NCBI GenBank assembly: GCA_033580815.1
Contig: JAVQUC010000002.1
Span: forward strand, 4,259 to 68,258
Direction of reading: 5' to 3'
DNA from: Candidatus Caldarchaeum sp.
GTDB lineage: Archaea > Thermoproteota > Nitrososphaeria_A > Caldarchaeales > Caldarchaeaceae
DNA length: 64,000 bases
Positions 2,164 to 23,955 of the stretch are shown in pieces. The translations under genes were made by a program, and so were the position numbers. Positions within the stretch are counted from its first letter, which is position 1. Each line of letters starts with the position of its first letter. The notes below the pieces were generated by a model. The model was not told where the DNA came from. It did not search any database and was given only the letters and a program-made list of their open reading frames with translations.

Positions 2164-3306
2164 TTGCAGACGAGCTCAAAATGGGTTCTCCTATCATGGC
2201 TATTCGTCGACCGCATCGTCTACACGCTTAACTGGCTTTCCATCTCGCCGGCCCAGCCCTTCATAGCCAGTGAATTCGGGGTAGGTCTTACGTCGCTCGG
2301 AGTGCTGGGAACGGTTTTCCTCGTCGGAATAGGAACCTTCCAGATTCCAGCCGGCTTACTAGCGACGAAATACGGCCCAAAGAAAATCGCCCTGACAGGG
2401 CTTTTCCTCTCATCGCTTTTCGCGGGCCTTTGTAGTTTGGCTCCCAACTTCGAATCGCTCCTGGTTCTCAGGTTTTTGACTGGAGTGTTTCTTAGTTTTT
2501 TCTTCGGTCCGGGGATCTCGTTCTTCACACCGCTCTTCGGCGTCAGGGAAAGAGGCACTGCTTTAGGCATCTACAACGCGGGCTTTCATGTCGGCACGCT
2601 GCTCGCCATCGGAGTCTGGCCGACTTTGATTACCCAGGTAGGGTGGCGCTTGGGTCTTTTGATTCCCGGCGTGATTGGGTTAGTTCTTACAGGCGTCACC
2701 TACGGTGTCTCGCGCTGGGTGAACGACAGAACCAACAACGAGGAATATGGGTTGTCAGCTATCAAAAACACTGCAGTGATCAGCTCAGCGTTGGGCCTTG
2801 CCCTAGCCGGGGCTGCATGGTATCCGCTTACACAGTTTGGAATCCTCTATCTGGATTTGGAGAAGGATGTTGGGTTTGAGGCCGCCGGTGCCTTGATATC
2901 GGTTCTTTCTGTTGGAAGCGTCTTCGGCGCGCCCCTTTCCGGAAGAATTTTCGACAGAGCGCGAAACCGCAAACTATTGCTGTATCTCCTCAATGTCTTA
3001 AGCGCGCTAGCCTTGTCGGCCTTCGTCTTCACACCAGTCGCTCTGATACCTTTGGTGATGTTTGTTATCGGATTTCTTTACACCTCCTCCAACAGCCTGT
3101 TCTACCTCGTCCCCATGTCTCTCCTTCCCGAAGAGAAGGTGGCGGTGGCCGTCGCCATGGTCAACTCTGTTCATCTGCTGGCGGCCTCGGTCATTCCATT
3201 CGTGTTCGCGAACCTTGTCGAATCGCTGGGATACGTCGTAGGATGGCTGTCAATGTCTGCACTCTGTGCTTCTGCCCTTGTCTGCATTCGAGGAATGAAA
3301 GTTTAA
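2164..3306 (+). CDS. MFS-family transporter (380 aa)
   Basis: About 12 predicted hydrophobic helices. The length and G/A/L-rich composition are typical of the major facilitator superfamily. Confidence 0.6.
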   Translation: MQTSSKWVLLSWLFVDRIVYTLNWLSISPAQPFIASEFGVGLTSLGVLGTVFLVGIGTFQIPAGLLATKYGPKKIALTGLFLSSLFAGLCSLAPNFESLLVLRFLTGVFLSFFFGPGISFFTPLFGVRERGTALGIYNAGFHVGTLLAIGVWPTLITQVGWRLGLLIPGVIGLVLTGVTYGVSRWVNDRTNNEEYGLSAIKNTAVISSALGLALAGAAWYPLTQFGILYLDLEKDVGFEAAGALISVLSVGSVFGAPLSGRIFDRARNRKLLLYLLNVLSALALSAFVFTPVALIPLVMFVIGFLYTSSNSLFYLVPMSLLPEEKVAVAVAMVNSVHLLAASVIPFVFANLVESLGYVVGWLSMSALCASALVCIRGMKV

Positions 3307-3324
3307 CCACTGTGAAGTGGTTAA
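3303..3324 (+). terminator. Perfect palindrome TTAACCACT-GTGA-AGTGGTTAA overlapping the MFS stop codon, followed by an A-rich tract. Possible terminator or protein-binding site.
   Basis: 9-bp inverted repeat with a 4-nt loop, read directly from the sequence. Confidence 0.3.
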
Positions 3325-3357
3325 AAACTTAAATAATCAAAGTCCAAACCCACAACC

Positions 3358-3831
3358 ATGGATGTTTTTAGCGCGGCGGAGGAGATCATGGAGAACGCGC
3401 TGGTCTCCTCCCTCAGCTACGTCACATCATCGGGTGAAGTTTCAACTCATCCGATGCTTCCGCTCTACAGCAGAGAAAGAAAGAAGCTGTACATGACCTC
3501 AAGCATACTGTTCAGCAAAAAAATCGAGCACATAAAGAGGAACCCTAAGGTCGGTGTGCTGTTTAGCGGCCGGCAGTTCATCAGAACACCAACCTACTCC
3601 GCTTTACATCTCAAAGGCGATGCAAAGATCTACGAGGAAGACCTTCACAAGGGCTGGGAATGGCTCGTCGACCTCTGGCGTAAGAAGGAACCCTACATCG
3701 ATTCTTTCCTCAAACAGCGAATAGCATTGCCGCTCTTCTGGGAACGCGTGATCATCGAAATCACTCCCCGTGAACTGCTGCTTTGGAAAGACGGCGACAT
3801 AAGCACAGAGCCGCTGAGGTGGAGGGCATGA
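3358..3831 (+). CDS. Pyridoxamine-5'-phosphate-oxidase-like (FMN-binding split-barrel) protein, 157 aa
   Basis: Size and motif pattern (…KRNPKVGVLFSG… HLKGDAKIYEED…) of the PNPOx-like family. Its stop TGA overlaps the ATG of the next gene (ATGA). Confidence 0.5.
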   Translation: MDVFSAAEEIMENALVSSLSYVTSSGEVSTHPMLPLYSRERKKLYMTSSILFSKKIEHIKRNPKVGVLFSGRQFIRTPTYSALHLKGDAKIYEEDLHKGWEWLVDLWRKKEPYIDSFLKQRIALPLFWERVIIEITPRELLLWKDGDISTEPLRWRA

Positions 3832-5150
3832 CGGTCGAACGAGAGCTGGAGGAATTCAGCGACGTAGTCGTTTCATACTTGGATGACGACGGCTATCCCA
3901 TGAGCTATTCGACAACGGCGAGGAAGCACGAGGGAAAACTAATCCTCGAAAAACCACCCTACCTTAAGGTTAAACCACGTGTTACCGTTTTGCTCAACCA
4001 CATAACACCACTCCCCACAGGAGGCTACACCGATCGAAGGTACGTCATGATGAGAGGGCGTGCAGAGGTCGAAAGACGAACGGTCTTATTCACGCCGGAG
4101 AAAACCTACGGCTGGGACGAAAAAACAAAGCCCTTCTTCCAATATTGCGAGGAAAGGGTGCCGCAGGCGAGGAGGTATCTCACGGTACTGAGTGAAAGCG
4201 TTGGACGCGTCATCAAGGCGCGGCTGCCGACTGTTCAACTGCTTTTCAGAGCAACGAGGTTCCCGTTTCTGACAGCGACCGTCGCTCCCGTTTTGATCGG
4301 CGTCGGCTCAGCGGCCTATCTGGGATTCTTCGACCCGATTCTCTTCATCCTTACGCTGGTCGGCGCTAGCCTCATCCACCTAGGCCTAAACATGACGAAC
4401 GACTACTATGACTCGAAGCTGGGAGCGGACGAAGCGAACATCACGCCAACACCGTTCAGTGGGGGGTCGAGAATGATCCAGTATGGCTTGCTGTCGCCGA
4501 GACAAGTTGCGACGGCAGCGGCTCTGTTCTATCTTTTCGGGGGATTGATAGGAGTTTTCCTTGCTTTGACCCGTGGTCTAATACCGGTTTTGACTGTGAT
4601 GGCCATCGGCATCTTCATCAGCTACGCCTACACCGCCCCGCCTTTCAAGCTCGCCTACAGAGGAATGGGAGAATTGGCCGTTGGCATAGGCTTCGGCCCC
4701 GTAATCGTACTCGGAAGCCACTACGTCCAAACTCAAACCTTCTCTTTAGAGGCCGCTGTAGCCTCTATTCCCATAGGCATAATGATAGCACTAATCCTGT
4801 ACATCAACGAAATACCCGACGCACCCTACGACACCGTAGCAGGCAAACGAACCATCGTGACAAGGCTTTCGAAACCCGCCGTGCTTACCTTGTACAAAAT
4901 TCTCCTCGGGCTGGCGTACGCGTTCATAGTTGGTTCTGTCGTGTCGGGTCTGGCTCCTCCGACGGTTTTGCTGGGTCTGCTGACGATTCCGAAAGCGGTC
5001 AAAACAGTTCGGCTTGTGTCACAGACTTACGGCAGTCCGTATTTGATGATTCCTGCTCTCGCATCAAACATCCAGGTTGCGACTTTGACAGGGTTTTTGA
5101 TGGCCGCTGGTTTCTTCCTCTGGGCTGTGGTGCGGCTGTTGTTGCCGTAA
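3828..5150 (+). CDS. Fusion protein: an N-terminal PNPOx-like soluble domain of about 130 aa joined to a UbiA-family aromatic/isoprenoid prenyltransferase with about 8 TM helices
   Basis: GGAGG Shine-Dalgarno sequence 8 nt upstream of the ATG at 3828. The C-terminal part carries the UbiA signature NDYYDSKLGAD (NDxxDxxxD) plus many TM helices. The N-terminal part (VVVSYLDDDGYPMSYS… VTVLLNH…) resembles a second split-barrel domain. Confidence 0.6.
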   Translation: MTVERELEEFSDVVVSYLDDDGYPMSYSTTARKHEGKLILEKPPYLKVKPRVTVLLNHITPLPTGGYTDRRYVMMRGRAEVERRTVLFTPEKTYGWDEKTKPFFQYCEERVPQARRYLTVLSESVGRVIKARLPTVQLLFRATRFPFLTATVAPVLIGVGSAAYLGFFDPILFILTLVGASLIHLGLNMTNDYYDSKLGADEANITPTPFSGGSRMIQYGLLSPRQVATAAALFYLFGGLIGVFLALTRGLIPVLTVMAIGIFISYAYTAPPFKLAYRGMGELAVGIGFGPVIVLGSHYVQTQTFSLEAAVASIPIGIMIALILYINEIPDAPYDTVAGKRTIVTRLSKPAVLTLYKILLGLAYAFIVGSVVSGLAPPTVLLGLLTIPKAVKTVRLVSQTYGSPYLMIPALASNIQVATLTGFLMAAGFFLWAVVRLLLP

Positions 5151-5187: not shown

Positions 5188-6264
5188 ATGGTGAGACGCA
5201 GAGCAGCTGCCAAACCAGCGTACATTGGTTCCCTCCGTGGCAGAGATTTCCTCAACACGAACGACTTCAGTCAGGAGGAAATTAACAACATCCTCAAAGC
5301 CGCAAGAGATTTGCGTGAAAAATTCAAAGCCCGTAAACCAACTGAGTACTTGAGAGGCCAAACGCTTTTCATGATCTTCTACAACCGCTCCCTCAGAACA
5401 CGCAACTCCTTCGAAGCGGGAATCTATCAACTTGGTGGTCACGCCCACTTCCTCAGCCCATCAGACGTCTACACACCAACCCTACCCGAAGATATGATCC
5501 CTTACCAAACGGAATCAATCGCTGATGTGGCCCGTGTTCTCAGCACATACGGTGACGCCATCGCCGTGAGAATCTACGGAGACGCGGCCAAATGGCATAT
5601 CGGAAGAGGCCACAGGGTTATTCAAGAGTTCGCGAAATGGAGTACCATTCCCGTTCTGAACATGGAAGACGACATCTACCATCCCTTCCAAGCGCTCGCA
5701 GACATGATGGCTATAACGGATGTAGCCCCAAAGCCGAGGGGTAAGAAATTCGTCGTCTCCTACGCCTACTCAGGAGGTCTTAAACCGCTTGCAGTCCCCC
5801 AAAGCTGTATTCTAATCGGAACACAGTTTGGGATGGATGTTGTGTTGGCTCATCCACCTGGGTTTGAGCTTGAAGACCACGTCATCCAGGCATGTAAGAA
5901 AAACGTGGAGCAGTACGGCGGCTCGTTCAAAATAACAAACAACATGAAGGAGGCTTTTGAGGGTGCAGACTTTGTTTATCCGAAGGCATGGTCGCCGAAA
6001 AAATTCTTCCCACCTTATAACAATACCGTTGACAAGGAGGGGGCAACTCGATACCAAGACGAGTTCAAGGCATGGATAACGACTCCGGAGCTGATGGACT
6101 TAACCAACAAGGGCAAATACATGCACTGCGGCCCAGCCGACAGAGGACAAGAGGTCGTCGACGAAGTCATCGACAACCCAAACTATTCACTATACTTTCA
6201 ACAAGCCGAAAACCGACTTCACGTCCAGAAGGCCGTGATGTCGATGACGATGGGAAAGAGATGA
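5188..6264 (+). CDS. OTC/ATC-superfamily transcarbamylase of unassigned specificity (358 aa), possibly YgeW/oxamate- or putrescine-carbamoyltransferase-like
   Basis: STRTRNSFE (carbamoyl-phosphate binding), HPFQALAD (HPxQ) and a C-terminal HCGPADRGQEV (HCLP-like) are present. The classical ornithine (DxxxSMG) and aspartate motifs are missing. It is a paralog of 10083..11102. Confidence 0.65.
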   Translation: MVRRRAAAKPAYIGSLRGRDFLNTNDFSQEEINNILKAARDLREKFKARKPTEYLRGQTLFMIFYNRSLRTRNSFEAGIYQLGGHAHFLSPSDVYTPTLPEDMIPYQTESIADVARVLSTYGDAIAVRIYGDAAKWHIGRGHRVIQEFAKWSTIPVLNMEDDIYHPFQALADMMAITDVAPKPRGKKFVVSYAYSGGLKPLAVPQSCILIGTQFGMDVVLAHPPGFELEDHVIQACKKNVEQYGGSFKITNNMKEAFEGADFVYPKAWSPKKFFPPYNNTVDKEGATRYQDEFKAWITTPELMDLTNKGKYMHCGPADRGQEVVDEVIDNPNYSLYFQQAENRLHVQKAVMSMTMGKR

Positions 6265-7289
6265 AAACAGGGGAAGACATCCTCGAGCTAATCGGTAACA
6301 CACCCCTTCTCCGACTCAGGAACATAGAGAAACACGCGGGCATCGAGTCGGAGCTCTGGGCCAAGCTTGAGTTTTACAACCCCTCGGGAAGCCTCAAAGA
6401 CCGGATATACCGCGAAATGATAACGAAGGCCATCGAAAGAGGAGATTTGAGGCCGGGGATGGAAATACTCGAAGTGTCGACTGGAAACGCGGGGATTGCG
6501 TGTTCTTTCGTCGGCTCCCACCTCGGATACAAGGTCACAATCGTCATGCCTGAAGGAATGAGCGAGGAGCGGAAGCAGCTCATCAAGGCGTTCGGCGGCC
6601 AGCTGGTTTTTACTCCCGGGGCAGAAAGCGATGTTGACATTAGCCTTAGGAAAGCGGAGGAGATGATGCAGCGGAACCCGGGGAAGTACTGGTTTCCCAA
6701 CCAATTCACCAACCCGGACAACATCCAAGCACACATCAAGACCACCGGCCCCGAAATATGGGAGCAGACCAAGGGCACCGTGGATTGTTTCGTGATGTCG
6801 CAGGGAAGCGGAGGAACAGTATCAGGAGTTGGTAAATTCCTCAAAGAGAAAAAACCCGGTGTGAAAATATACACGGTCGAACCGGCTGAAGCTCCGATAA
6901 TCAGCGAAGGAAGATGGGGGACTCACAGAATCGAAGGAATCGGAGACGGGTTCATCCCCCGCAACCTCGACCTTTCCGTATGTGACGGAGTGGTGACGAC
7001 GACTTCGGAGGAGGCAATAGAAACAGCGAGAACACTCGCCCGTCTGGAGGGAATATTCGGAGGAATTTCCTCCGGATGCAACGTAGCCGCGGCAGTGAAA
7101 GTTGCTAGGAAATACAAGAAGCTGAGAAAGATAGTAACTCTTATTTGCGACTCAGGCAACAGATACTTGTCCACCGAATTGTACGGTCCGGGTAAGAAAA
7201 CCGAAATCCCAGAGAGGGAACACCCGCTCGACGAGTACACGGTGAGGATGCGGGAAAAACACGCAAGCCGTCTCGAAGTGATAAGGTAA
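6261..7289 (+). CDS. PLP-dependent fold-type II enzyme of the cysteine synthase / cystathionine-beta-synthase family (342 aa)
   Basis: ATG at 6261 overlaps the upstream stop (ATGA). PLP-lysine motif SGSLKDR and glycine loop GSGGT are present. The longer ORF 6072..7289 in the track is an in-frame artefactual extension. Confidence 0.7.
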   Translation: MKTGEDILELIGNTPLLRLRNIEKHAGIESELWAKLEFYNPSGSLKDRIYREMITKAIERGDLRPGMEILEVSTGNAGIACSFVGSHLGYKVTIVMPEGMSEERKQLIKAFGGQLVFTPGAESDVDISLRKAEEMMQRNPGKYWFPNQFTNPDNIQAHIKTTGPEIWEQTKGTVDCFVMSQGSGGTVSGVGKFLKEKKPGVKIYTVEPAEAPIISEGRWGTHRIEGIGDGFIPRNLDLSVCDGVVTTTSEEAIETARTLARLEGIFGGISSGCNVAAAVKVARKYKKLRKIVTLICDSGNRYLSTELYGPGKKTEIPEREHPLDEYTVRMREKHASRLEVIR

Positions 7290-7295
7290 GCAGGA

Positions 7296-7793
7296 ATGGC
7301 GAGCTTCCATTTTGACGAAACCAACGGAGTCGCGTGGGACACCTACTTTGGCGGTCGTGTTTTGGTTCTTTCAGCCAAGCTTATCGGTGAGATGCGGAAG
7401 CTCTTGGCCGGCTCGACATCTGCTGCAGCGGCTGACGCTCTTCTCTGGCACATCGGAAAACGCTATGGTTTAGCGTTGTTGCAGAGAACAGTCGAGATGA
7501 AAAAGAAGCCGTTGGACAGCATAGCCCTACTCGCCGCAAGTGCGCAGAAATCTGGATGGGGCAAAATCTCAGTCGGAAACAAGGTCGATGTAGACCAAAC
7601 ATTCGAAATAGTTTTCGAGAACTGTGCTTTCTGCGAAGGAATCACGGGTGAAAAAAGTCCGTCGTGCTATTTTCTAGCGGGGATCTTGACAGGAATCGCC
7701 GAAGGATTGTTCGGTGAAGGATACAGCGCCAGAGAGACGGAATGCAGGTCTGTCCAAGGAAATGTCTGTCGTTTTTCAGTCGCGAAGTTTTAG
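7296..7793 (+). CDS. V4R (4-vinyl-reductase-like) small-molecule-binding domain protein, 165 aa
   Basis: Conserved Cys pattern CAFCEG … CYFLAGILTGI, typical of V4R/XylR-N-like domains. Confidence 0.5.
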   Translation: MASFHFDETNGVAWDTYFGGRVLVLSAKLIGEMRKLLAGSTSAAAADALLWHIGKRYGLALLQRTVEMKKKPLDSIALLAASAQKSGWGKISVGNKVDVDQTFEIVFENCAFCEGITGEKSPSCYFLAGILTGIAEGLFGEGYSARETECRSVQGNVCRFSVAKF

Positions 7794-7796
7794 CTG

Positions 7797-9056
7797 GTGC
7801 AGGGTTTGTTCGTGGAGAAGATGGTCTGTTCGAGATGCGGTGAATCCTACGACCCCCGTTCTAACCCTATAATGTGTAGAAATAACGACTTCGGCCGGTT
7901 GGATATCTACTATGACTATGACAAGGTCGCTGAATCTTTCAACCGCGCCGAGTTGAGCAAACGTCCTCCGCAGGGTGTATGGCGGTACTGGGAGTTGATG
8001 CCCGTCAACCGCAAGCATTCATCGCCTCTCGCCGAAGGTAACACGCCCCTTCTTAGGGCTTTCCGGCTTGGTCGTGAAATTGGGTTGAAAAACCTGTTCC
8101 TCAAGGACGACACTCGCAACCCGACGGCATCCTTTAAAGACCGGGCGATGTCGGTCGGCGCGGCGAAAGCCCTCGAGACGGGCAAGGTCAACGTGGTCAT
8201 AGCTTCCAGCGGGAACGCTGCATCCTCCTTGGCAGCCTATAGTGCGTCTCTGGGCCTTAACTGTACAGCTTTTGTTCCCGAAGACGTCTCGTTGGGAAAG
8301 GCTTCGCAACTCCTTCTCTACGGCGCCAGAGTTGTCAGGGTCAAGCAGGTTCGGGAGGGGCGCGACCCAACGGTCGAGTTGATGCTCCAGACTGTCCATG
8401 AGATGGGATGGTATCCATGCCCAAGCTTCGGACCCTTCAACCCCTATCAAGTCGAAGGCCCCAAAACAATAGCCTACGAAACAATCGAACAGCTAGAATG
8501 GACAATTCCCGATTTCGTGCTCATCCCCACAGGCTCGGGTTGTTTAGCCGCCGGGATATGGAAGGGCTTCAAAGACTTGAAGACACTGGGTCTGATCGAC
8601 GAATACCCAAAGATCGTCCCGGTCCAGCCTGAAGGAAACATGCCGTTGGTGAGAGCGATAAAGCAGCGCAAAAAATTTGAAGAAATAGAGCCAGAAAAAT
8701 GGCCCCGCTCCATAGCTTCAGGCCTTCTCGACCCCTATCCGTGGGATGGCGACGCAGTCATCGAAGGGGTGAACGCGACGAGAGGAACGGGGGAAACCGT
8801 GACCGAGACCGAAATCAGGGATTCCGTGAAAAAGCTCGCTAACCTTGAGGGTGTCTTCGCCGAACCATCCGGCGCTGTTGGAGTGGCCGCGGCACAGAAG
8901 CTGTTCCATCAAGGTGTAATCGATTCATCGGACGCGGTGGTCATCCTCGTCACCGGCTCGGGACTCAAGGAACCCGAAAAAATGGTCGCTGAGTCCAGCA
9001 TACCGCTGATAACACCGGATATCGAAGAATTCCGCAGACTTTTAGGAAAAAAGTGA
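7797..9056 (+). CDS. Threonine-synthase-like PLP enzyme with an N-terminal Zn ribbon (419 aa)
   Basis: N-terminal C-x2-C … C ribbon (MVCSRCGESY…C), PLP motif SFKDR and a TS-family glycine loop. Confidence 0.7.
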   Translation: MQGLFVEKMVCSRCGESYDPRSNPIMCRNNDFGRLDIYYDYDKVAESFNRAELSKRPPQGVWRYWELMPVNRKHSSPLAEGNTPLLRAFRLGREIGLKNLFLKDDTRNPTASFKDRAMSVGAAKALETGKVNVVIASSGNAASSLAAYSASLGLNCTAFVPEDVSLGKASQLLLYGARVVRVKQVREGRDPTVELMLQTVHEMGWYPCPSFGPFNPYQVEGPKTIAYETIEQLEWTIPDFVLIPTGSGCLAAGIWKGFKDLKTLGLIDEYPKIVPVQPEGNMPLVRAIKQRKKFEEIEPEKWPRSIASGLLDPYPWDGDAVIEGVNATRGTGETVTETEIRDSVKKLANLEGVFAEPSGAVGVAAAQKLFHQGVIDSSDAVVILVTGSGLKEPEKMVAESSIPLITPDIEEFRRLLGKK

Positions 9057-9083: not shown

Positions 9084-10076
9084 TTGAAGTTTTTATTACG
9101 GCGGGACTTGTCATCGCCCATGGATGGCGGAGAGCTTATCGTTGTCGCTTTAGGAGGTAACGCGTTGCTCAGGAGAGGGGACAAGGGCTCGTTCGAAGAA
9201 CAATATAGGAATGTTTCGGAGGCGGCACGCTACCTAGCCGACATCGTCGAAGCAGGCCACAAACTCGTCATCACACATGGCAACGGACCCCAAGTGGGAG
9301 CCACGCTTCTGAGACACGACGCCGGCCAGAAAATCCATGGGATACCGGCCTTCCCGATGGATGCATGCGGCGCCGAAACACAGGGATTAATCGGCTACAT
9401 CATACAGCAAAACCTACGCAACGAGCTCAAACGAAGGGGGATCGACAAATACGTAATCACGGTTGTGACGAGAGTCATCGTCGACAAAGACGACCCTGCC
9501 TTCAAAAACCCAACGAAGCCAATAGGCCCCTTTTACAAAAAAGAGGACCTGGACAAGCTAAAGGCCGAACATCCTGAATACGTCTTCGCCGAAGACAAGG
9601 CTCGCGGCGGATGGAGGCGAGTGGTTCCATCGCCCGACCCAAAAATCATAGCCGAAAGACACGCGATCAAAGCGTTGGTCGACGCGGGTTTCATCGTCGT
9701 CGCAAGCGGTGGGGGCGGCATCCCGATAATCGAGGAGAACGGAAGAGCATCCGGTGTTGAAGCGGTCGTAGACAAAGACCTAGCTGGAGAGAAGCTCGCC
9801 GAGCTGATCAAAGCCGACAGGTTCGTCATCCTGACTGACGTCGACGGAGCATACCTTAACTATGGAAAACCAGACCAGAAAAAGCTGGAAAAAGTGACGG
9901 CCGCTGAAGCGAGAAAATATCTCGAAGAGGGACATTTTGGCTCCGGCTCGATGTTGCCGAAGGTGCTCGCATGCATAAGGTTTGTGGAGTCTGGTGGAAA
10001 AGAGGCGATCATCGCAGAGCTATCGCAGTTCAAGGAGGCTTTCGCGGGAAAAGCCGGCACTCATTTCATTCGGTGA
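9084..10076 (+). CDS. arcC: Carbamate kinase. The true start is probably Met13 at 9120.
   Basis: [10 protein letters not shown] and THGNGPQVG motifs are diagnostic of carbamate kinase in the amino-acid kinase family. Length is about 315 aa. Confidence 0.85.
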
Positions 10077-10082: not shown

Positions 10083-11102
10083 TCAGACTTTGCCGGCGAC
10101 GAGTGCGAGTATCGCGGCTCTCACATAGAGAAGGTTTTCGGCCTGGTCGTAAATGACGCTCCGAGGCCCGTCCATCACATCATCGTCAGCCTCCTGACCC
10201 CTGAAAACCGGTAAAACATGCGTGACGACACCGTGTTTGGACATCAAGTCCGTCAGTTCACGGGTAAGCTTCCAGTCCTTGTATTTGTTATGAAGCTCGA
10301 CTTCGCGTTCGCGGCCGAACCTGTTCATTCCGGTTAGGACGCATTCGTGGCTTGCCCAGCTCCGTGGGAAAACTGCGTCCGCGCCCTCTAAAGCTTCCCT
10401 GTAGTCGTGGGAGATTGATAGGCTGCCGCCGCTTTCTTCGGCGTTCTTCTTGGCAATCTTGACGATGTTCTCGTCGATGTCGAAGCCCGGCGGATAAGCG
10501 AGTACGACATCCATTCCGAACCTTGTCGCAATCAACATCTCATCCTGTATGCTGCCCCAGCTTCTGATCCTATCGCTGTAAGCCCACATCAACACATATT
10601 TTTTCTTCTCCACTTTGCCAAGCTTTTCCTTTAACGTGTAAAGGTCTGTTATTGCTTGGCTGGGATGGAACATGTCGTCGGCCATGTTGATGACGGGAAT
10701 TTTCGCATGTTCGGCGTATTCACGGACAACGGCGTTTCCTCTACCGTACACATAGTCGACGGCTGATTCGAGGATGCGGACGCCCAGAACGTGGCCGAGC
10801 CTTTCATACATCTTGGCTATGTCTTTGACCGCTTCTCCTTCAGCGCCGCGTGTCGTGGCAAAGTCGATGAACTGGGCGTGGCCTCCCAGCATCGTCGCCG
10901 CTGCTTCAAAGCTGGCCCTCGTCCTAGTGCTGGTGTTGTAGAAGAGCATGAACATGGTCCTGTTTTTGAAGAGCTCGGGAACGTTCCCGGCCGCCCTCCC
11001 GATTTTCAGGCTGCGCGCAAGCTCCATCGTCGCCGTGATCTCCTCGATTGTCCAATCTTGTGATGAGATGAGGTCCCTTCCGAAAAGCTCTGTCAGGGTC
11101 AT
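10083..11102 (-). CDS. Second OTC/ATC-superfamily transcarbamylase paralog (339 aa), of unassigned specificity
   Basis: STRTRASFE and HPSQ motifs. It shares the unusual WAYS…FGMDVVLAYPPGF segment with 5188..6264 and has a C-terminal HVLPVFRGQE. It lies convergent to carbamate kinase. Confidence 0.65.
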   Translation of the reverse strand: MTLTELFGRDLISSQDWTIEEITATMELARSLKIGRAAGNVPELFKNRTMFMLFYNTSTRTRASFEAAATMLGGHAQFIDFATTRGAEGEAVKDIAKMYERLGHVLGVRILESAVDYVYGRGNAVVREYAEHAKIPVINMADDMFHPSQAITDLYTLKEKLGKVEKKKYVLMWAYSDRIRSWGSIQDEMLIATRFGMDVVLAYPPGFDIDENIVKIAKKNAEESGGSLSISHDYREALEGADAVFPRSWASHECVLTGMNRFGREREVELHNKYKDWKLTRELTDLMSKHGVVTHVLPVFRGQEADDDVMDGPRSVIYDQAENLLYVRAAILALVAGKV

Positions 11103-11126: not shown

Positions 11127-13478
11127 TTATAGGTGTTTAGCTTTGTACAGTTCTTCGAGGACCCGTGATGGTTTAAGTGGGAGCTCCCGGATGTAAACTC
11201 CCGTCGCATTTGCCACCGCTCCGGCGATGGAAGCAGCTGGGAGAACGACAGGGATTTCGCCCATCGCTTTAGCGCCGAAGACACCGATGCTTCCTTTTAC
11301 CTCCACGATGATGCTGTGTATTTCCTGCGGTGCGTCGGATGCAGTGGGGATGACAAATCGGTGAAGGGATGGGTTGACGAGAACCCCTCCGTCGTGAACA
11401 ATTTCCTCCATCAAGGCGTATCCAAGACCCATTATGCTCCCGCCTTCGTAAGTCGCGACGAGACCCAGCGGGTTTATCGCACGGCCGACGTCGTAGGCTG
11501 CCGTCAGGCGGTCGACTTTCACCACCCCTGTCTCAGTGTCGACAGTAACTTCAGATATCAGGGCGCCGTACGTATACTGATTGTAGGGGGACCCTTGGCC
11601 TGTTTCGGGATCCCATTTGGTGGGAGGCGCGATGTAGTAGCCGACTGCTTTCAGCGGAACGTTCTCTTCAAAACATTGGTTTACGGCCTCTTGCCAGCTG
11701 ACTGATTTACCGTTTGCAGCTGATATCTTTCCGTGCTTAAATTCGAGGTCTGTCGGGTTGGTCGAAAGGGTTTTGGCCACTACGGATGCGATCGTGGCCC
11801 TGATTTTTAGAGCTGCGTCTAGCGCAGCTTGCCCGCCTATTACAGTTGTTCGGGATGCGACGGTCGGCCCGGAGTTGGGAACAGCAGCCGTGTCAGGTCT
11901 TTCGAGCTTCACCATCGAAATCGGTAGCCCGAGGGCCTCGGCGGTGACGATGGCGAGCGAAGTTAGAGCACCGGTTCCGTATTCAGTCAACCCGGTTTGA
12001 ACAACCACTTGCCCGCCCCTCTCCACACGTGTAACGACGTATGCGAAATCATCTCCTTCGGGACCCAGCGTGTTCCCGTGGTATAGGAGAGCGATCCCTA
12101 TACCCTTCTTTATCGAGGTGTTCCGTCGGTTGAACTCCTCGAATTCTCGGGCCTTTCTCCGGTATTCGCTGACTTCGACGGCTTGACGATAGCATCTGAC
12201 GAGGCCGTCGTCCTCGATTTTGTGGCTTGTCGCGGTGAGGGAACCGGGTTTCAGCATGTTGATTTCCCTTATTTCGAGAGGGGACATGTTAAGCTCCTCG
12301 GCGAGCTCGTTCATCGTCATCTCGGCGGCGAAATGAGCTTGTGGTGCGCCAAACCCACGGGTCGAACCAGCCATGGTGTTGTTGGTTATTACGCAGTAGC
12401 CGTCGGCCCAAACATTCGGCACTTCATACGGGCCGGTGCAGTGGAAAGTGGCGCGGCCTATCACTAGGTGGCCTTTTGAGATGTATGCGCCGGTGTCCTC
12501 GTAGAGGGTTGACTTCCAAGCAAGCAGCTTTCCGTTCTGGTCTGCTCCGACGACGTTCGTGATTTCGAAGGGATGTCTTTTGCATTGAACCGTCATCGCC
12601 TCCGCTCGGGTGAAAGCCGCGAGAGCGGGCTTTCCTGTATGGTAGGTCGCTAGGCAAGCGTAAGCAGCAACATCTATGGGTGTTTCGTCGCTTTTCGGCC
12701 CAAACCCTCCACCGGTAGCGGCCTGAACAACCCTCAGCCTATCGTTTGGAACACCGAGAATCCTAAGGACTTTGTTGTATACGTCGTGAAGGTTTTGCAT
12801 CGAGGAGATGCAGTTAATTCTTCCATCGCCGTCTATGAAGGAATACGCAATTTCTATCTCGAGCGGCAGCCCCGTGATAAACTGAGTTCTATAGGTTCTT
12901 TCAATAATGACGTCGGACTTCCTGAAGCCTTCTTCAACATCGCCCTTCCTGATTTTGAAATGAGTGAAGACATTGTCTCTGTCCTGCACGCGTGGTGCAT
13001 TGGGTTTTATCGCTTCACGAGGACTGGTGACCACGGGAAGCGGGTCATAAACAACCTCGACAAACTCCGCGGCCTCTTCTGCGTCCTCGACCGATTCTCC
13101 AACCACCAGCGCCACGGCTTCACCTATGTGGCGGACTTTGTCGAAGGCGAGTAGGGGCCTGTCGGAGATAAGGCTTCCACCGTCGTTGACGCCCGGAATA
13201 TCCTTTGCCGTAATGACTTTAACAACTCCCTTCCTTTTTTCGGCAGGGCTGTAATCGATTTTCCTGATGTATCCATGGGGGATGTTGGAGCGGACGGCCT
13301 TTACGAAAAGAGTTTTTTCAGCCACGAGGTCCGCTGTGTAGACAGGTTTTCCGAGGACTGCGTCGAGGGCGTCGACCCGAGCAACTTTTTTGCCGATGAC
13401 GAAAAACTCTCTCGCCTGAAGGATTTCGGCGAACCGTTTGAGGATTTCCTCACTCACCGTCTTCTCACCCTCTCCCAC
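11127..13478 (-). CDS. Molybdopterin-binding large subunit of a xanthine dehydrogenase / aldehyde oxidase-family molybdoenzyme (783 aa)
   Basis: Length and conserved blocks of the XdhA/CoxL family. It lies in an operon with 2Fe-2S and FAD subunits. Confidence 0.8.
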   Translation of the reverse strand: MGEGEKTVSEEILKRFAEILQAREFFVIGKKVARVDALDAVLGKPVYTADLVAEKTLFVKAVRSNIPHGYIRKIDYSPAEKRKGVVKVITAKDIPGVNDGGSLISDRPLLAFDKVRHIGEAVALVVGESVEDAEEAAEFVEVVYDPLPVVTSPREAIKPNAPRVQDRDNVFTHFKIRKGDVEEGFRKSDVIIERTYRTQFITGLPLEIEIAYSFIDGDGRINCISSMQNLHDVYNKVLRILGVPNDRLRVVQAATGGGFGPKSDETPIDVAAYACLATYHTGKPALAAFTRAEAMTVQCKRHPFEITNVVGADQNGKLLAWKSTLYEDTGAYISKGHLVIGRATFHCTGPYEVPNVWADGYCVITNNTMAGSTRGFGAPQAHFAAEMTMNELAEELNMSPLEIREINMLKPGSLTATSHKIEDDGLVRCYRQAVEVSEYRRKAREFEEFNRRNTSIKKGIGIALLYHGNTLGPEGDDFAYVVTRVERGGQVVVQTGLTEYGTGALTSLAIVTAEALGLPISMVKLERPDTAAVPNSGPTVASRTTVIGGQAALDAALKIRATIASVVAKTLSTNPTDLEFKHGKISAANGKSVSWQEAVNQCFEENVPLKAVGYYIAPPTKWDPETGQGSPYNQYTYGALISEVTVDTETGVVKVDRLTAAYDVGRAINPLGLVATYEGGSIMGLGYALMEEIVHDGGVLVNPSLHRFVIPTASDAPQEIHSIIVEVKGSIGVFGAKAMGEIPVVLPAASIAGAVANATGVYIRELPLKPSRVLEELYKAKHL

Positions 13479-13909
13479 GCCTCTTCAAACCTTATGTAGC
13501 TACCGCACCTACAAAGGACGGTTCTCAGCGCGTGTCTTACCTCTTGCTTCGTCGCCGTGGGTTTTTCGTCGTAGAGGTGTTTGAGAACGAGGAGCGCGGC
13601 CGGTATGCAGAAGCCGCATTGGACGGCGCCGACGTCGATGAAGGCTTGCTGCAGCGGATGAAGTTTCCCACCGTCACCCAACGCTTCGACCGTGGTGATT
13701 TTTAGGCCGTCCACGCGATAAGCTAGGACGAGGCACGAATTGACGGGTTTTCCATCGACCAATACGATGCAGAGCCCGCAGTCACCTGTGCCGCATCCCT
13801 GTTTGACGCTGACCAACCGCAGCTTGTTACGGAGAACGTCGCTAAGCCTCTCATTAGGCTCTACATCCACCGAATACCTGACCCCGTTAACCTCAAAATC
13901 GACTTTCAA
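13454..13909 (-). CDS. [2Fe-2S] small subunit of the molybdo-dehydrogenase (XdhC/CoxS-like), about 151 aa
   Basis: CGTGDCGLC and CGFCIPA cluster motifs. The likely TTG start (MKVDFEVNG…) overlaps the stop of the FAD subunit. The tracked ORF is N-terminally over-extended. Confidence 0.8.
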   Translation of the reverse strand: MKVDFEVNGVRYSVDVEPNERLSDVLRNKLRLVSVKQGCGTGDCGLCIVLVDGKPVNSCLVLAYRVDGLKITTVEALGDGGKLHPLQQAFIDVGAVQCGFCIPAALLVLKHLYDEKPTATKQEVRHALRTVLCRCGSYIRFEEAWERVRRR

Positions 13910-14742
13910 ACGGCACCACCCACAGACCGCTGCAAAAGCCTTTCCAACAAAACCCCAGCCACCTTCTTCCGGTACCAAGATGACGCAAAGACATCGTCTA
14001 CCGGGTTAATCGACTTCGAAAGAAGTTCACCTGCTTTCTCAATGTTTTCCTTTGTCAGAGGCCTGTTTTCGAGGAATTTCTCAACCGAGAAGACCCTTCC
14101 CGGGGTCTCGAAGTCTTTATGGGAAACTGCAACCTTGATGTTCTTTCCGCTCACATCGACGGAAACAGACATCAACGGAAACCTTGATATCCCCATCCAG
14201 AGCTTGTCAAACCAACAGCCAGCGCTCAGCCGGAACGAAACAAACTCCAAGAGTCCTCTAATTTCTAACTTTCGCCGCAAAAACTCGTCAAGGGAAACTC
14301 TTTTTTGCCCCTCCTTGGTTGCGAAGATAAGTTCTGCGTCGAGTGTCAGCAGAATCGGTATGATGTCCTCGGTCGCTCTTTTGAGCATGATGCTTCCCCC
14401 CGTTGTAGCTAGGTAGGACACAGCGGGTGATGAATAGTTCTGGAAAAATGTGTGAAAAGCCGGGATCTGTTTACCGAAGGTCGAAGCCAATTGATGATGC
14501 GTAACGAGTGCTCCGACATTCGCTCTACCGTCAGCCACAACAACGTTCTTCAGTTCGCGGATTTTGCCTATGTCGACGAACTTGCGGGTTCGTCTTTCCC
14601 CGGTCGTTAAGGATGTGATGATTTCTGTTCCCGCGGCCATGATTTCTCTCTCCGGCTCGTCGTCAAGAGCCTTCAAGGCCTGATCCACAGTCTCGGCGAC
14701 CACCACATCTATCCTCGGAATGTTCAAATAGCCGATGATCAT
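13906..14742 (-). CDS. FAD-binding medium subunit of the molybdo-dehydrogenase (XdhB/CoxM-like), 278 aa
   Basis: Typical N-terminus and FAD-binding PCMH-type domain. It overlaps both neighbouring genes. Confidence 0.75.
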   Translation of the reverse strand: MIIGYLNIPRIDVVVAETVDQALKALDDEPEREIMAAGTEIITSLTTGERRTRKFVDIGKIRELKNVVVADGRANVGALVTHHQLASTFGKQIPAFHTFFQNYSSPAVSYLATTGGSIMLKRATEDIIPILLTLDAELIFATKEGQKRVSLDEFLRRKLEIRGLLEFVSFRLSAGCWFDKLWMGISRFPLMSVSVDVSGKNIKVAVSHKDFETPGRVFSVEKFLENRPLTKENIEKAGELLSKSINPVDDVFASSWYRKKVAGVLLERLLQRSVGGAV

Positions 14743-16106
14743 GGTCTCAGCCTCAATGGCTCAACAGCTTCTGAGGGCTCTTCTCCGAGTCTGAGCCAGA
14801 GCTTTTCGACCGTCTTCACGACCGTCGACTCGGCTTTTTCCTTATCAACCTTGGTCAACTGCCTGTTCTCCACGACCTGAACGCCGTCGACGAAAACCTG
14901 TTCAACGTCTCCCCCCTTCACGCCGTTAACCAAATAGCCATAAACATTCCTGTCGATAGGAGTGGCGCAAACTTCGGGTCTTACAACGATGATATCAGCT
15001 CTTTTCCCCAGCTCGAGCGAGCCCAACGATGATAAGCCGTAGGCCTTCGCGGCGTTGACTGTCGCCATCTCAACGACCGTCTGAGGAGAAAGCACGGAAG
15101 GGTCTCTTCGTTCCACGCGGTGTATCAGAAAGGCGGTGCGCATGTTCTCGAACCCGTCGAAAACGTATCCGTCGTTGCCCAAGCCGACGTTGACCCCGGC
15201 CTCAAGCATCTCGGGAAGCTTCATCACACCGACGGCGTTCAACATGTTGCTCATTGGGTTGTGAGCCACGTGCGTACCAGTCGACGCCAGCAGTTGGATT
15301 TCACGTCTGTTTAGGTGAACGCAGTGGGCGAGTACAGAGAATGGCCCTAGTAGACCGGTCTGATGGAGCCTTTCCACAGTCCTTTTTCCATATCTTTCGA
15401 TGTTGTGGTAGACGTCGTTGAGGCCCTCGGAGACGTGAATTGTCAAGGGGGCGTTGAATTTTTTGGCTATGTCGATGCCTCTCGCGATGAGGTCGTCGCT
15501 TACCGTGAAGGAGGCGTGAAGACTCACCATACCTTTTGCAAGACCAACACCACCTCTTTCGAGAAACCGCACGTTCTCATCTAATCCTCTCCTTCCCTCG
15601 TCGACGCTTCTTCTTTCAGTTGCCTCAAAAGAGATCAGCCCTCTTATGCCGACTTCGTTGACGGCTTTGGCTATTGCGTCAAGGCTGCCTTCTGGATTTG
15701 ATGGGGCAGAATAGGTGTCGGCGAAAGTGGTTGTGCCGTTTAGAACCATCTCCATGCATGCAGCTAAGGCGGTTGCGTAGGCGTCGTCGTTGTTCATTTG
15801 TTCGTCGAGAGGCCACCAAATCCGTTGAAGGTTTTCGAGAAAATCTGTCGTGGGCCGAATGCGTAAGGCCGCTCCCCTTAAGGCGATGCCGTAGAGATGG
15901 GTGTGGGCGCAGATGAGTCCAGGCATCACGAACTTTCCGGAAACATCGATGACCCGGTCGAATCGACTTGCTCTTCCGACATCGCCGTTTTTCCCGACAA
16001 AAGTTATCACGCCATCTTCAAACCCGACTGCTCCGTCGACGATGACCCTCCGAACCGAATCCATTGTAACGATAACGCCGCCCTTGAGCAGAACCGAGTC
16101 CGGCAC
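14739..16106 (-). CDS. Amidohydrolase-superfamily deaminase/chlorohydrolase (SsnA / guanine-deaminase-like), 455 aa
   Basis: HTHL metal-binding motif near the N-terminus and the typical length. It lies in an operon with the xdh genes. Confidence 0.65.
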   Translation of the reverse strand: MPDSVLLKGGVIVTMDSVRRVIVDGAVGFEDGVITFVGKNGDVGRASRFDRVIDVSGKFVMPGLICAHTHLYGIALRGAALRIRPTTDFLENLQRIWWPLDEQMNNDDAYATALAACMEMVLNGTTTFADTYSAPSNPEGSLDAIAKAVNEVGIRGLISFEATERRSVDEGRRGLDENVRFLERGGVGLAKGMVSLHASFTVSDDLIARGIDIAKKFNAPLTIHVSEGLNDVYHNIERYGKRTVERLHQTGLLGPFSVLAHCVHLNRREIQLLASTGTHVAHNPMSNMLNAVGVMKLPEMLEAGVNVGLGNDGYVFDGFENMRTAFLIHRVERRDPSVLSPQTVVEMATVNAAKAYGLSSLGSLELGKRADIIVVRPEVCATPIDRNVYGYLVNGVKGGDVEQVFVDGVQVVENRQLTKVDKEKAESTVVKTVEKLWLRLGEEPSEAVEPLRLRP

Positions 16107-16109: not shown

Positions 16110-17111
16110 CTAAACCTCCGCGATGCTCTTGATTAGGTATTCTGGGTCTCCGCTCAAAGGTAGCAGGAGCGGCGAAGTGCATCCATGAGCCATGTATTCC
16201 TTGACCTTTGACACCACGTCTGAAACGGTTCCGGAGGCGCTTATCATTCTGACTATGTCGTCGGGAACGATTTCTGTCGCCTTCTCTATTCCGCCCGGTT
16301 TCGCAGGCCAGCCACCCATGATGCGTTGTACTTCATGAATCAAGTCTTCGCTCACTCCGCTTGCTTTCATGATGTGCGGCTGCTGGCCCAAAGTCATGGT
16401 CACGTGTTTTTTGGCGAGTTTCACAGCCTTATCGGCATCAGGATGCACCGAGCAAGCTATTAATTGCGGCCTGTCTATGTCCTCGAGCCTCCGCCCTGCT
16501 CTTGCTGCACCGATCTTTATGTGTTCCAGCGCTGTGTCGTTGTATTTGGGGGAGACGAGGTAGTTGAGGAGTACTCCGTCGCCGATTTCTCCAGCTAGCT
16601 CCATCATCTTCCATCCGGTAGCACCGATGTAAATGGGGATGTTTCGGGGTTTCTCTCCAGCGCCGTGTAGAACGTCCAAACGAACACCTCGCATTTTCAC
16701 AAACTTTCCTTCAAACGTCACCTCCTCCATGCGGAAAAGCCTGCGAATTACTTCGACGTATTCCCGCATGCATTTAAGAGGCTCGGTCCTCTCTATCCCA
16801 ACCTTCCAAGCAAGCGGGTCCCACCAAGCACCAAGTCCGAGAATAACACGTCCATCGCTCAATTCATCCATCGTCGCGAAAGTCTGAGCGATGAGGGCGG
16901 CGTTACGGGTCCAAGTGTTTATCACACCAGCTCCAACCTTGATTTTGGAAGTGACTGTTGCGATTGCGGTCATGGGAGTCAACGCATCTCTTGCCAGACG
17001 TGATTCGGCTACCCATGCCGATTCGAAATCGTAACGCTCGGCGAGCTGAGCATAACGTACCATCTCACGGACATGCATGTCTTGAAGATATAGACCCCAG
17101 CGAACATCCAT
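16110..17111 (-). CDS. Luciferase-like (LLM) flavin/F420-dependent oxidoreductase, 333 aa
   Basis: TIM-barrel LLM family features (…GLGAWWDP…). First gene of the minus-strand operon. Confidence 0.6.
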   Translation of the reverse strand: MDVRWGLYLQDMHVREMVRYAQLAERYDFESAWVAESRLARDALTPMTAIATVTSKIKVGAGVINTWTRNAALIAQTFATMDELSDGRVILGLGAWWDPLAWKVGIERTEPLKCMREYVEVIRRLFRMEEVTFEGKFVKMRGVRLDVLHGAGEKPRNIPIYIGATGWKMMELAGEIGDGVLLNYLVSPKYNDTALEHIKIGAARAGRRLEDIDRPQLIACSVHPDADKAVKLAKKHVTMTLGQQPHIMKASGVSEDLIHEVQRIMGGWPAKPGGIEKATEIVPDDIVRMISASGTVSDVVSKVKEYMAHGCTSPLLLPLSGDPEYLIKSIAEV

Positions 17112-20322: not shown

Positions 20323-20362
20323 ACTTCCTTTAAAACCCATAAATTTTTTCCGCATAATTCAA

Positions 20363-21907: not shown

Positions 21908-21910
21908 CGA

Positions 21911-22978: not shown

Positions 22979-23955
22979 TCGACATCGGGTTTGTTGAATC
23001 AGTTCTGGCCGGGGCAGTCGCTGCCGGAACGGTTTTTCTCCTCGCCTCCCTCGGTGAAACCTACGCGGAAAGGGCGGGAGTCCTCAACCTCGGAATGGAG
23101 GGAATGATGATCATGGGAGCGGCGGTTTCATACATTTTCACCAACGCCATGGGGCACGGAGCTGCTTTGCTGATGGTTCTGATAATGGGCGTGTTGATGG
23201 GCCTTCTTCACGCCTTTTTCACCGTCAGCCTCAAGCTAAACCAAGTCGTCGTGGGGTTGGCGGTGACTATTCTCGGTCTCGGGTTGAGCGGGTTGTTGGC
23301 CTCGGCGGAAATACGGGCTCGAATCATACTAGCTTTGAACCCAGAGGCGACGAGGGCTGTTATCGCTTCGCAGGAGGCGCCAAAGTTGCCTCTGATACCG
23401 GTCGCGGGCCTCAAGGACATCCCGATAATCGGTCCGATGTTCTTCAACCACAACGCCCTCGTCTATTTCTCCCTCGTCCTCAGCCTTTTGATGTGGTTCG
23501 TTCTGTTCAAAACGAGGTTTGGTCTGAGCATCCGTTCCTGCGGTGAAAACCCTTCCATGGCAGACACGCTGGGAATAAACGTGTACTTCATGAGGTATGT
23601 TTCAATGGTTGTCTGCGGCATGCTGGGTTGCCTGGCGGGTGCTTACCTCTTCATCGGGTACCAGCCCTTCTGGGTGGAAGGGATGACTCAGGGCCGGGGC
23701 TTCATATCGCTTGCGCTCGTCATCCTAGCGACGTGGAACCCGTTAAGGGCCGTGCTCGGAGCCTATCTCTTTGGAGGCGTGGAAGCACTGCAGTTTCGGC
23801 TACAGGTGCTCGGAGTCGCAGCTCAGCTTCCGTATTTTCTGCTAATGCTCCCCTACGCCGTGACCATCATAACGTTGACGTTGCTATCTCTCGAATCCGT
23901 GAGAAAAAGGGTAGGAGTTCCAGCGGCTTTGGGCATTCCCTACTCCCGTGAATAA
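22975..23955 (+). CDS. ABC transporter permease (326 aa)
   Basis: Multi-TM protein. Its start overlaps the stop of the previous permease. Confidence 0.7.
   Translation: MIDIGFVESVLAGAVAAGTVFLLASLGETYAERAGVLNLGMEGMMIMGAAVSYIFTNAMGHGAALLMVLIMGVLMGLLHAFFTVSLKLNQVVVGLAVTILGLGLSGLLASAEIRARIILALNPEATRAVIASQEAPKLPLIPVAGLKDIPIIGPMFFNHNALVYFSLVLSLLMWFVLFKTRFGLSIRSCGENPSMADTLGINVYFMRYVSMVVCGMLGCLAGAYLFIGYQPFWVEGMTQGRGFISLALVILATWNPLRAVLGAYLFGGVEALQFRLQVLGVAAQLPYFLLMLPYAVTIITLTLLSLESVRKRVGVPAALGIPYSRE

Follow-up and report, generated by a model that had tools for sequence, protein, structure and literature searches.

A bacterial route for the reductive breakdown of purines, the 2,8-dioxopurine or 'yanthine' pathway, was described in 2025 (bioRxiv 10.1101/2025.04.24.650524; PMC12507026). 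In this pathway urate is reduced to 2,8-dioxopurine by a homologue of xanthine dehydrogenase (XDH), the ring is dearomatised by either YgfK or UacX, and SsnA and HyuA open it to give 2,3-diureidopropionate; the two ureido groups are removed by YgeW and YgeY, with the carbamate kinase YqeA making ATP together with YgeW, and YgeX ends the pathway by converting 2,3-diaminopropionate to pyruvate and ammonia (bioRxiv 10.1101/2025.04.24.650524; PMC12507026). The two sources give opposite regiochemistry for YgeW, its product being 3-amino-2-ureidopropanoate in one and 3-ureido-2-aminopropionate, or albizziin, in the other, a disagreement that bears on the assignment of the two carbamoyltransferases (OTC1 and OTC2) discussed below. 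The SsnA neighbourhoods of Chloroflexota contain a luciferase-family F420 enzyme instead of YgfK; the survey that reported this covered bacteria only, and scored any PF00291 protein near SsnA as 'YgeX' (PMC12507026). Here, we describe a gene block in a 64,000-nucleotide stretch of DNA from Candidatus Caldarchaeum sp. (assembly GCA_033580815.1, contig JAVQUC010000002.1, positions 4,259 to 68,258 of the forward strand), hereafter the window, whose own numbering is used for all of its genes. At the centre of the block lie two enzymes of pyridoxal 5′-phosphate (PLP) fold type II, one resembling cysteine synthase (CysK-like) and one resembling threonine synthase (ThrC-like), with a small V4R protein between them.

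The block consists of five genes arranged head to tail on the forward strand: OTC1, a carbamoyltransferase of the ornithine carbamoyltransferase (OTCase) family (5188-6264; PF02729 and PF00185); the CysK-like enzyme of 342 aa (6261-7289; PF00291, TIGR01139); the stand-alone V4R protein of 165 aa (7296-7793; PF02830); the ThrC-like enzyme of 419 aa (7797-9056; PF00291, NF006050, TIGR00260); and a carbamate kinase (9084-10076; TIGR00746, 432 bits against a cut-off of 358). Their successive spacings are -4, 6, 3 and 27 nt, the stop codon of OTC1 overlapping the start of the CysK-like gene as ATGA (6261-6264). An initial annotation, made from the letters and open reading frames alone, had placed the three middle genes between a carbamoyltransferase and carbamate kinase within a purine locus; their coordinates and spacings proved exact, and their families were confirmed with Pfam and NCBIfam. 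The true start of the carbamate kinase is more likely the ATG at 9120, rather than 9084, and its homologues in related loci are called at 318 aa. About 10 species-level genomes of the Caldarchaeum type share the five-gene string, and distant lineages have parts of it in other gene orders; given this recurrence across genomes, the arrangement is far from chance.

The interpretation that we prefer, with a probability of roughly 0.6, is that the block belongs to an archaeal (Thermoproteota) variant of reductive purine fermentation in which the ThrC-like enzyme replaces YgeX without being its orthologue. Except at the PLP step, every enzyme of the window cluster has its match, or an analogue, in the 2,8-dioxopurine pathway. 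Neither the window nor the 89 related loci compared with it (L001-L089) yielded a YgeX orthologue, and a fold-type-II enzyme of another family therefore most likely does the job of YgeX. The searchable literature gave no account of the pathway in archaea, of YgeX being replaced by a ThrC-like enzyme or of carbamoyltransferases in pairs.

This interpretation draws on the company that the ThrC-like gene keeps in other genomes. Specifically, 80 loci were examined by tblastn and by clustering of their open reading frames, and linkage was counted on the 44 species-level loci in which each flank reached 5 kb or more. Within 10 kb of the ThrC-like gene, an OTCase-family gene was found in 35 of these 44 loci and two such genes in 22; carbamate kinase was present in 24, the molybdenum (Mo) subunit of an XDH-family enzyme in 21, an SsnA-like amidohydrolase in 18, a luciferase-like (LLM) oxidoreductase of the F420 type in 13 and adenine deaminase in 12, and 40 loci had at least one of these genes, a hydantoinase or a PreA-like gene. 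Five or more archaeal orders show this linkage to carbamoyltransferases, carbamate kinase and purine-catabolic genes. A D-hydantoinase (TIGR02033, 422 bits) and PreA/PydA-like homologues of dihydropyrimidine dehydrogenase (NF006183, 470 bits) are also conserved in the neighbourhood, and by analogy with the bacterial pathway would be the counterparts of HyuA and UacX, respectively.

The linkage is not inherited synteny, because gene orders differ greatly between lineages. In Calditenuaceae the order is LLM-SsnA-ThrC-like, with a convergent hydantoinase and adenine deaminase; in Nitrososphaerales it is Ade-XDH-OTC1-CysK-ThrC-like-XDH2-OTC2, followed by SsnA-LLM and carbamate kinase (CK); and in Desulfurococcales it is either ThrC-like-OTC2-OTC1-CK or OTC2-OTC1-CK-SsnA-PreA-ThrC-like. 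Several Nitrososphaeria and Bathyarchaeia have only carbamate kinase, the second carbamoyltransferase (OTC2) and the ThrC-like gene, and this minimal module was seen in L053, L054, L056, L060, L062, L071 and L076. One Desulfurococcales locus (L073) holds adenine deaminase, an amidohydrolase, OTC1, the ThrC-like gene and a YgeY-like gene (5795-6994 of that locus), which is the ygeW-ygeX-ygeY order with the ThrC-like gene in the slot of ygeX. In L069, an operon of a YgeY-like gene (13611-14780), OTC1 and the CysK-like gene adjoins the ThrC-like gene. These are the only two of the 89 loci with YgeY-like M20 peptidases, which are 32% identical to E. coli YgeY, and judging from gene content the second carbamoyltransferase appears to take the role of YgeY in the others.

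The only other fold-type-II genes in the 89 loci are a 488-aa PALP family in three of them and one weak match in L064. The 488-aa protein (L059, 5489-6973; L066, 8496-9962; L068, 8496-9962) adjoins the ThrC-like gene in some Bathyarchaeia/Nitrososphaerota; with 82 bits on the cysK model it resembles CysK only distantly, and it matched no specific NCBIfam family. In two loci (L044 and L050, about 2.6-15.2 kb) the ThrC-like gene lies amid three tandem sets of ferredoxin and tungsten-type aldehyde:ferredoxin oxidoreductase, with genes for a PreA-like reductase and a hydantoinase as further neighbours. Ferredoxin and oxidoreductase genes were labelled here from their sequences, the aldehyde:ferredoxin oxidoreductase gene being confirmed with Pfam only in L091, and the arrangement suggests that this lineage may use a ferredoxin-linked electron route.

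A motif scan of one genome per GTDB species (185,579 species) found the ThrC-like clade in 165 species, all of them archaeal metagenome-assembled genomes and nearly all Thermoproteota, and a profile search of 1.8 billion representatives at 50% identity gave two matches above 500 bits, after which scores dropped to 433 bits and then tailed off smoothly. Compact in sequence and patchy in distribution, the clade is unlikely to be the threonine synthase of these lineages. Three more distant ThrC-like proteins (P0251, P0252 and P0256; 375-433 bits) carry the same motifs as the clade (PSFGPFN..Q.EG and DPxPWDGD), and the family defined by these motifs is therefore wider than the clade studied here.

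Around the block, the window contains further genes of a purine cluster, as the initial annotation had indicated. OTC2 (10083-11102, reverse strand; PF02729 and PF00185) is convergent with the carbamate kinase. Next to it, at 11127-14742 on the same strand, are the three subunits of an XDH-family molybdoenzyme: the Mo subunit (11127-13478; PF01315, PF02738 and PF20256), whose best NCBIfam match is XdhA at 474 bits, below cut-off, the 2Fe-2S subunit (13454-13978) and the FAD subunit (13906-14742). The Fer2_2 and FAD_binding_5 labels were taken from gene calls in orthologous loci, rather than from a scan of the window genes. An SsnA-like amidohydrolase (14739-16106, reverse; 362 bits on the SsnA model NF005540, below its cut-off of 444) and an LLM oxidoreductase of the F420 type (16110-17111, reverse; PF00296, 230 bits), whose best NCBIfam matches are Mer-type F420 enzymes at about 203 bits, come next, and are followed on the forward strand by adenine deaminase (17200-18987; TIGR01178, 567 bits against a cut-off of 472) and a Bmp/PnrA-type ABC transporter with a binding protein, an ATPase and two permeases (19021-23955; PF02608 and two PF02653). 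The transporter, whose ATPase (20363-21907) was labelled from its translation only, is likely to serve in nucleoside or purine uptake; L077, L089 and L091 also have related transporter genes close to the ThrC-like gene. Several clusters of the Nitrososphaerales type (L008/L031/L032, L036, L037, L043 and L095) contain two different XDH-family sets, of about 45-59% and about 35-40% identity to the window enzyme, where the window has only one, which recalls XdhA and XdhD of E. coli.

Among the proteins of E. coli K-12, YqeA is 47% identical to the window carbamate kinase, XdhA 30% to the Mo subunit, SsnA 31% to the SsnA-like protein (187 bits), and YgeW 32% to OTC1 and 30% to OTC2. Neither carbamoyltransferase reaches the cut-off of any curated NCBIfam subfamily: the best match of OTC1 is to N-acetylornithine carbamoyltransferase (283 bits against a cut-off of 288), and the YgeW model gives 147-148 bits. 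OTC1 is conserved at 53-91% among related loci, mostly directly upstream of the CysK-like gene. The XDH-family enzyme, the SsnA-like protein, both carbamoyltransferases and the carbamate kinase are clustered in the window within 12 kb, and searches of the 64 kb with family hidden Markov models and with the E. coli proteins as queries found none of YgfK/UacX, HyuA, YgeY and YgeX; no substitute for the hydantoinase was seen in the window either. Profile searches with both PLP families found only three fold-type-II genes in the 64 kb, the two of the block and one at 59631-60773. As in the Chloroflexota variant, SsnA is paired with a luciferase-family F420 reductase, whereas the archaeal cluster, the ThrC-like replacement and the second carbamoyltransferase are features of the window that were not described there.

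By sequence and structure, the ThrC-like protein remains a member of the threonine synthase family. It scores 245 bits on PF00291 and passes both NF006050 (306.5 bits; cut-off 303) and TIGR00260 (189 bits; cut-off 167). Its AlphaFold model has a pLDDT of 87, and the top 21 Foldseek matches are threonine synthases, with TMt up to 0.85, followed by serine racemases and threonine deaminases; no diaminopropionate ammonia-lyase is among the 50 matches listed. The closest family is that of the class I threonine synthases (2zsj of Aquifex, 1uim/1v7c of Thermus, 2d1f of M. tuberculosis and 6cgq of B. subtilis), related to it at an E-value of 3e-55 and about 33% identity, with the SFKDR motif in common. 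Its likeness to YgeX consists of the cofactor and fold type, the genomic company (carbamoyltransferase, carbamate kinase, SsnA and XDH) and the proposed role. The two proteins are not orthologous, the ThrC-like protein scoring 49 bits on the YgeX model NF006058 (cut-off 276) and aligning with E. coli YgeX by BLASTP at 23% identity over 199 aa (E-value 4e-6), and it carries an additional N-terminal knuckle; its function is a prediction. Since it stays within the threonine synthase family, the claim made here is that it works in the place of YgeX, and not that it is a YgeX.

The PLP lysine of the clade, K114 in SFKDR, is invariant, and homologues of 50-80% identity have SFGPFNPYQVEGPKT and GLxDPxPWDGD in common; SFGPFNPYQ and the residues D312, W316, D317 and D319 are invariant across 82 species-level sequences. 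The N-terminal knuckle, which the initial annotation had taken for a C4 zinc ribbon, is actually CxxC-x12-C-x3-D, with three cysteines and an aspartate; of these, C11, C14 and C27 do not vary, and 80 of 83 sequences have D31. The numbering of Thermus threonine synthase was mapped through a printed alignment onto an alignment of the Aquifex protein with the query, only the mapping of positions being computed. In this way Thermus T88, N154, S155, R160 and N188, which are reported to contact the O-phosphohomoserine phosphate (Omi et al. 2003), align with A141, G212, P213, Q218 and S247 of the ThrC-like protein. The first four are invariant or nearly so in the clade, and position 247 varies (S in 60, A in 15 and G in 7 of 83). 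The replacement of these phosphate-aligned positions and the gain of the invariant acidic DPxPWDGD loop (D312, W316, D317, D319) would speak against a threonine synthase role, in a way that is suggestive only.

This argument from residues loses weight because ThrC2, the second ThrC paralogue of the window, and a ThrC paralogue of L078 differ at some of the positions as well, neither having Arg at the equivalent of R160. It regains some because another zinc-ribbon ThrC (P0254) retains the canonical motif, in the form of NPxINPYR and GNGCN. ThrC2 (59631-60773, forward strand; 380 aa) is without the N-terminal knuckle, is 36% identical to the ThrC-like protein and scores 271 bits on TIGR00260 versus 189, with slightly better PDB matches to threonine synthases. 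It lies 50 kb from the cluster and outside it, and shows that the cluster copy is not the sole threonine synthase homologue; the ThrC-like gene, which coexists with it, is never found beside thr genes and adjoins catabolic carbamoyltransferases. The ThrC2 loop VNVNLRPFYVEGSKT also differs from that of bacterial threonine synthases (NSVNPYRxEGQKT), and either paralogue may be the real threonine synthase.

The CysK-like protein scores 264 bits on PF00291 and passes TIGR01139 (cysK, 364 bits; cut-off 351); its best PDB match is Geobacillus CysK (2egu; 285 bits, 48% identity), and BLASTP against E. coli YgeX gives an E-value of 1e-4. It resembles CysK (O-acetylserine sulfhydrylase) in the PLP lysine, the GTGGT-like phosphate loop and the SSG motif, keeping SLKDR, GSGGT and ISSG, and differs from it in lying mostly in an operon with a non-canonical carbamoyltransferase rather than with cysE. 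All 9 aligned members of its clade, including those in non-purine contexts, have an STGNAG loop (canonical TSGNTG), with Thr replaced by Ala at the last position, and the clade also has KIEGIGDGF (canonical KIQGIGAGF) and a conserved C-terminal extension of about 35 aa. These motifs were considered as specific to the purine context, which was ruled out, since members adjacent to NifS/NifU share them.

The CysK-like gene is present in 32 of 81 ThrC-like loci, always within 5 kb of the ThrC-like gene and mostly immediately downstream of OTC1, and the overlap of the OTC1 stop with its start is found in both Caldarchaeales and Nitrososphaerales. Among seven clade members of 62-65% identity sampled on long contigs, four are in OTC, SsnA, XDH or ThrC-like contexts and three are elsewhere, two near M20 peptidases and one beside an arginase-family gene and NifS/NifU (L090, 3169-4443; L094, 9095-10066; L093, 7014-7916). 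The neighbouring enzymes in these three loci unmask amino groups, which may hint at a common substrate type for the clade. The association with carbamoyltransferases is frequent, not exclusive. The expectation of the initial annotation that the PLP genes are not housekeeping genes stands for the ThrC-like gene, given its linkage in at least five orders and the presence of ThrC2, and is weakened for the CysK-like gene by these other contexts. For the latter, the data would fit a normal cysteine synthase, beta-replacement on the C3 unit of the pathway or a lyase.

The V4R gene has a narrower range still. The protein scores 49.9 bits on PF02830 (gathering cut-off 31), and only 8 homologues were found among 5.8 billion proteins, all those with context being at the same position in Caldarchaeum-type loci. 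The motif ENCxFCEG...C...C...C is conserved, with C110, C113 and C124 invariant. The gene occurs in 10 of 81 loci, of the Caldarchaeum type only; its position is empty in Pelearchaeum and occupied by an unrelated gene in HR01, and it is absent in Nitrososphaerales and others. It is thus a late, lineage-specific insertion between the PLP genes and not a defining part of the module, and with the V4R gene in 10 and the CysK-like gene in 32 of 81 loci, the triad that the initial annotation had treated as a unit is not conserved as one. The structural model (pLDDT 76, the first 24 residues being poor) gives the phenol-sensing domains of PoxR/MopR/DmpR as best Foldseek matches (TMq 0.72), followed by MJ1460 (E-value 1e-4) and Bet3. 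The whole 165-aa model superposes on these V4R sensors, with the domain and the cysteine motif in common, and differs from PoxR, MopR and DmpR in having no AAA+ or helix-turn-helix output domain, in its identity of 16-22% and in its restriction to one genus-level lineage. On the evidence of the model, 'sensor-like' appears a fair label, and the protein may bind a ligand, as the initial annotation had suggested.

In the pathway that we propose, adenine would be deaminated and the purine processed by the XDH-family enzyme, after which the F420-type LLM enzyme would reduce the ring in place of YgfK/UacX. The SsnA-like amidohydrolase would open the reduced ring, joined in other lineages by the clustered D-hydantoinase, leaving a C3 amino acid with two ureido groups (2,3-diureidopropionate). 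OTC1 and OTC2 would strip both groups by phosphorolysis, the second carbamoyltransferase replacing the hydrolytic YgeY, and carbamate kinase would use the carbamoyl phosphate to make ATP; with two carbamoyltransferases in place of the YgeY step, both ureido groups could therefore give carbamoyl phosphate, and hence ATP. The ThrC-like enzyme, as a neofunctionalised threonine synthase paralogue, would convert 2,3-diaminopropionate, or a mono-ureido intermediate, to pyruvate and ammonia, acting in the place of YgeX either alone or together with the CysK-like enzyme. The latter, translationally coupled to OTC1, probably acts on the OTC1 product or on the same C3 unit, as a lyase or by beta-replacement, and the V4R protein would be a ligand-binding accessory specific to Caldarchaeum. 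The substrates, the order of steps, the products and the choice of the pyruvate-forming PLP enzyme are all inferred from gene content. A bolder version, which we regard as possible but rather doubtful, holds that the ThrC-like clade is a new activity arisen from threonine synthase (a 2,3-diaminopropionate/3-ureidoalanine lyase or a serine-forming hydratase) with an acidic pocket replacing the phosphate pocket, that both ureido groups are phosphorolysed to yield two ATP per purine instead of one, and that the CysK-like enzyme diverts the C3 unit to cysteine.

Several observations weigh against a YgeX-like role of the ThrC-like enzyme, and some of them would equally suit an ordinary biosynthetic cysK and thrC that merely happen to lie in the locus, with the V4R gene as an unrelated small gene. 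Both PLP proteins pass curated equivalog cut-offs, two of them threonine synthase models in the case of the ThrC-like protein, NCBI annotation agrees, and the top Foldseek matches of the latter are all threonine synthases; to our knowledge, diaminopropionate ammonia-lyase activity has never been reported in this family. In one lineage (L042, L045-L049, L055 and L080) the ThrC-like gene has a housekeeping-looking neighbourhood, made up of genes for thioredoxin reductase and for RPA-like and KaiC-like proteins, the nearest XDH-like gene, if any, being distant, and CysK-like members with identical motifs beside NifS/NifU and arginase, or M20 peptidases, are compatible with ordinary cysteine synthesis. 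The phosphate-residue argument is weak alone, as ThrC2 and the L078 paralogue deviate too. Against such a housekeeping origin stand the linkage of the ThrC-like gene to purine or carbamoyltransferase genes in 35-40 of the 44 fully flanked loci, in many gene orders, where a random gene would be expected in about 3% (a rough estimate), a distribution too patchy for a housekeeping enzyme (165 of 185,579 species), the better score of ThrC2 on the thrC model, the replaced phosphate-site positions and the lack of hom, thrB, cysE or serine-pathway genes adjacent to the block. We therefore consider the housekeeping origin improbable. The proteins of the cluster are nevertheless known here from their genes alone, and because the Caldarchaeum cluster is without a hydantoinase and the two papers disagree on YgeW, its intermediates may differ from the bacterial ones. 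In L091, finally, an OTC-CysK-SsnA-dihydroorotase-like cluster has no ThrC-like gene within 8 kb, and so either PLP enzyme could be the lyase.

The chemistry of the PLP enzymes leaves room for an assimilatory outcome, in which the C3 unit (diaminopropionate or 3-ureidoalanine) is turned by beta-replacement into cysteine (CysK-like with sulfide) and/or serine (ThrC-like with water); nitrogen-rich purine carbon would then enter amino acids, and not pyruvate. CysK-family enzymes catalyse beta-replacement, and addition of water at C-beta is what threonine synthase does among PLP enzymes; translation of the CysK-like gene is coupled to that of OTC1, elsewhere the gene lies beside amino-unmasking enzymes (M20 peptidases and an arginase-family protein), and two PLP enzymes per operon fit two outcomes better than a single lyase step. 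However, sequence does not separate replacement from elimination, clusters with the ThrC-like gene alone plus OTC and carbamate kinase look catabolic and ATP-yielding, and the bacterial pathway terminates in pyruvate, so that we rate this outcome as rather unlikely. The least probable alternative, in our view, is that the core of carbamoyltransferase, carbamate kinase and ThrC-like enzyme handles another ureido amino acid, the link to XDH and SsnA in Caldarchaeum being secondary. It would account for the minimal modules, which have no XDH or SsnA within 10 kb, for a locus (L092) in which the genes lie among pyrB and pyrI, and for the failure of OTC1 and OTC2 to reach any curated subfamily cut-off; yet many of the contigs are short, long flanks usually show SsnA-like, hydantoinase, PreA-like, XDH or adenine deaminase genes, and the OTC1/OTC2 orthologues of the minimal modules are 50-70% identical to those of full purine clusters. 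The interpretation of the initial annotation, taken as a whole, is partly supported; two PLP enzymes may, as it suggested, go with a different intermediate chemistry.

Two other regions of the window deserve mention. Upstream of OTC1, at 2164-5150 on the forward strand, are a major facilitator superfamily (MFS) transporter, a PNPOx-like protein with a weak match (PF01243, 24 bits, below the cut-off of 28.1) and a MenA/UbiA prenyltransferase with an N-terminal extension of about 150 aa that has no Pfam match. This arrangement is kept in all Caldarchaeales loci (L001, L004, L005, L010-L021 and L023). Comparison did not support an origin of the extension as a duplicate of the neighbouring PNPOx-like gene. 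At 61400-62100, overlapping open reading frames of 91-129 aa occur on both strands, with no convincing gene and no Rfam match at gathering thresholds, and the region may be non-coding or contain a structured RNA absent from Rfam. Near the block itself, Rfam and tRNA scans found no RNA elements.

The finding is a variant of a known pathway together with a likely mis-annotated protein clade, and not a new category of system. The bacterial route was worked out only in 2025, and in gut bacteria only; the data indicate that a version of it is spread through uncultured archaea of hot springs, soils and sediments, ranging over Caldarchaeales, non-ammonia-oxidising Nitrososphaerales, Bathyarchaeia and Desulfurococcales, with at least three of its steps filled by unrelated enzymes. 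'Threonine synthase' is probably a wrong label for proteins of at least 165 archaeal species in the collection scanned, and some 'cysteine synthase A' labels may be wrong too, which affects metabolic reconstructions of amino-acid prototrophy. The ThrC-like clade also offers a clean, testable case of neofunctionalisation in the threonine synthase family. Finally, the pairing of carbamoyltransferases suggests that purine fermentation yields more ATP here than it does in bacteria, which bears on how these archaea live on necromass.

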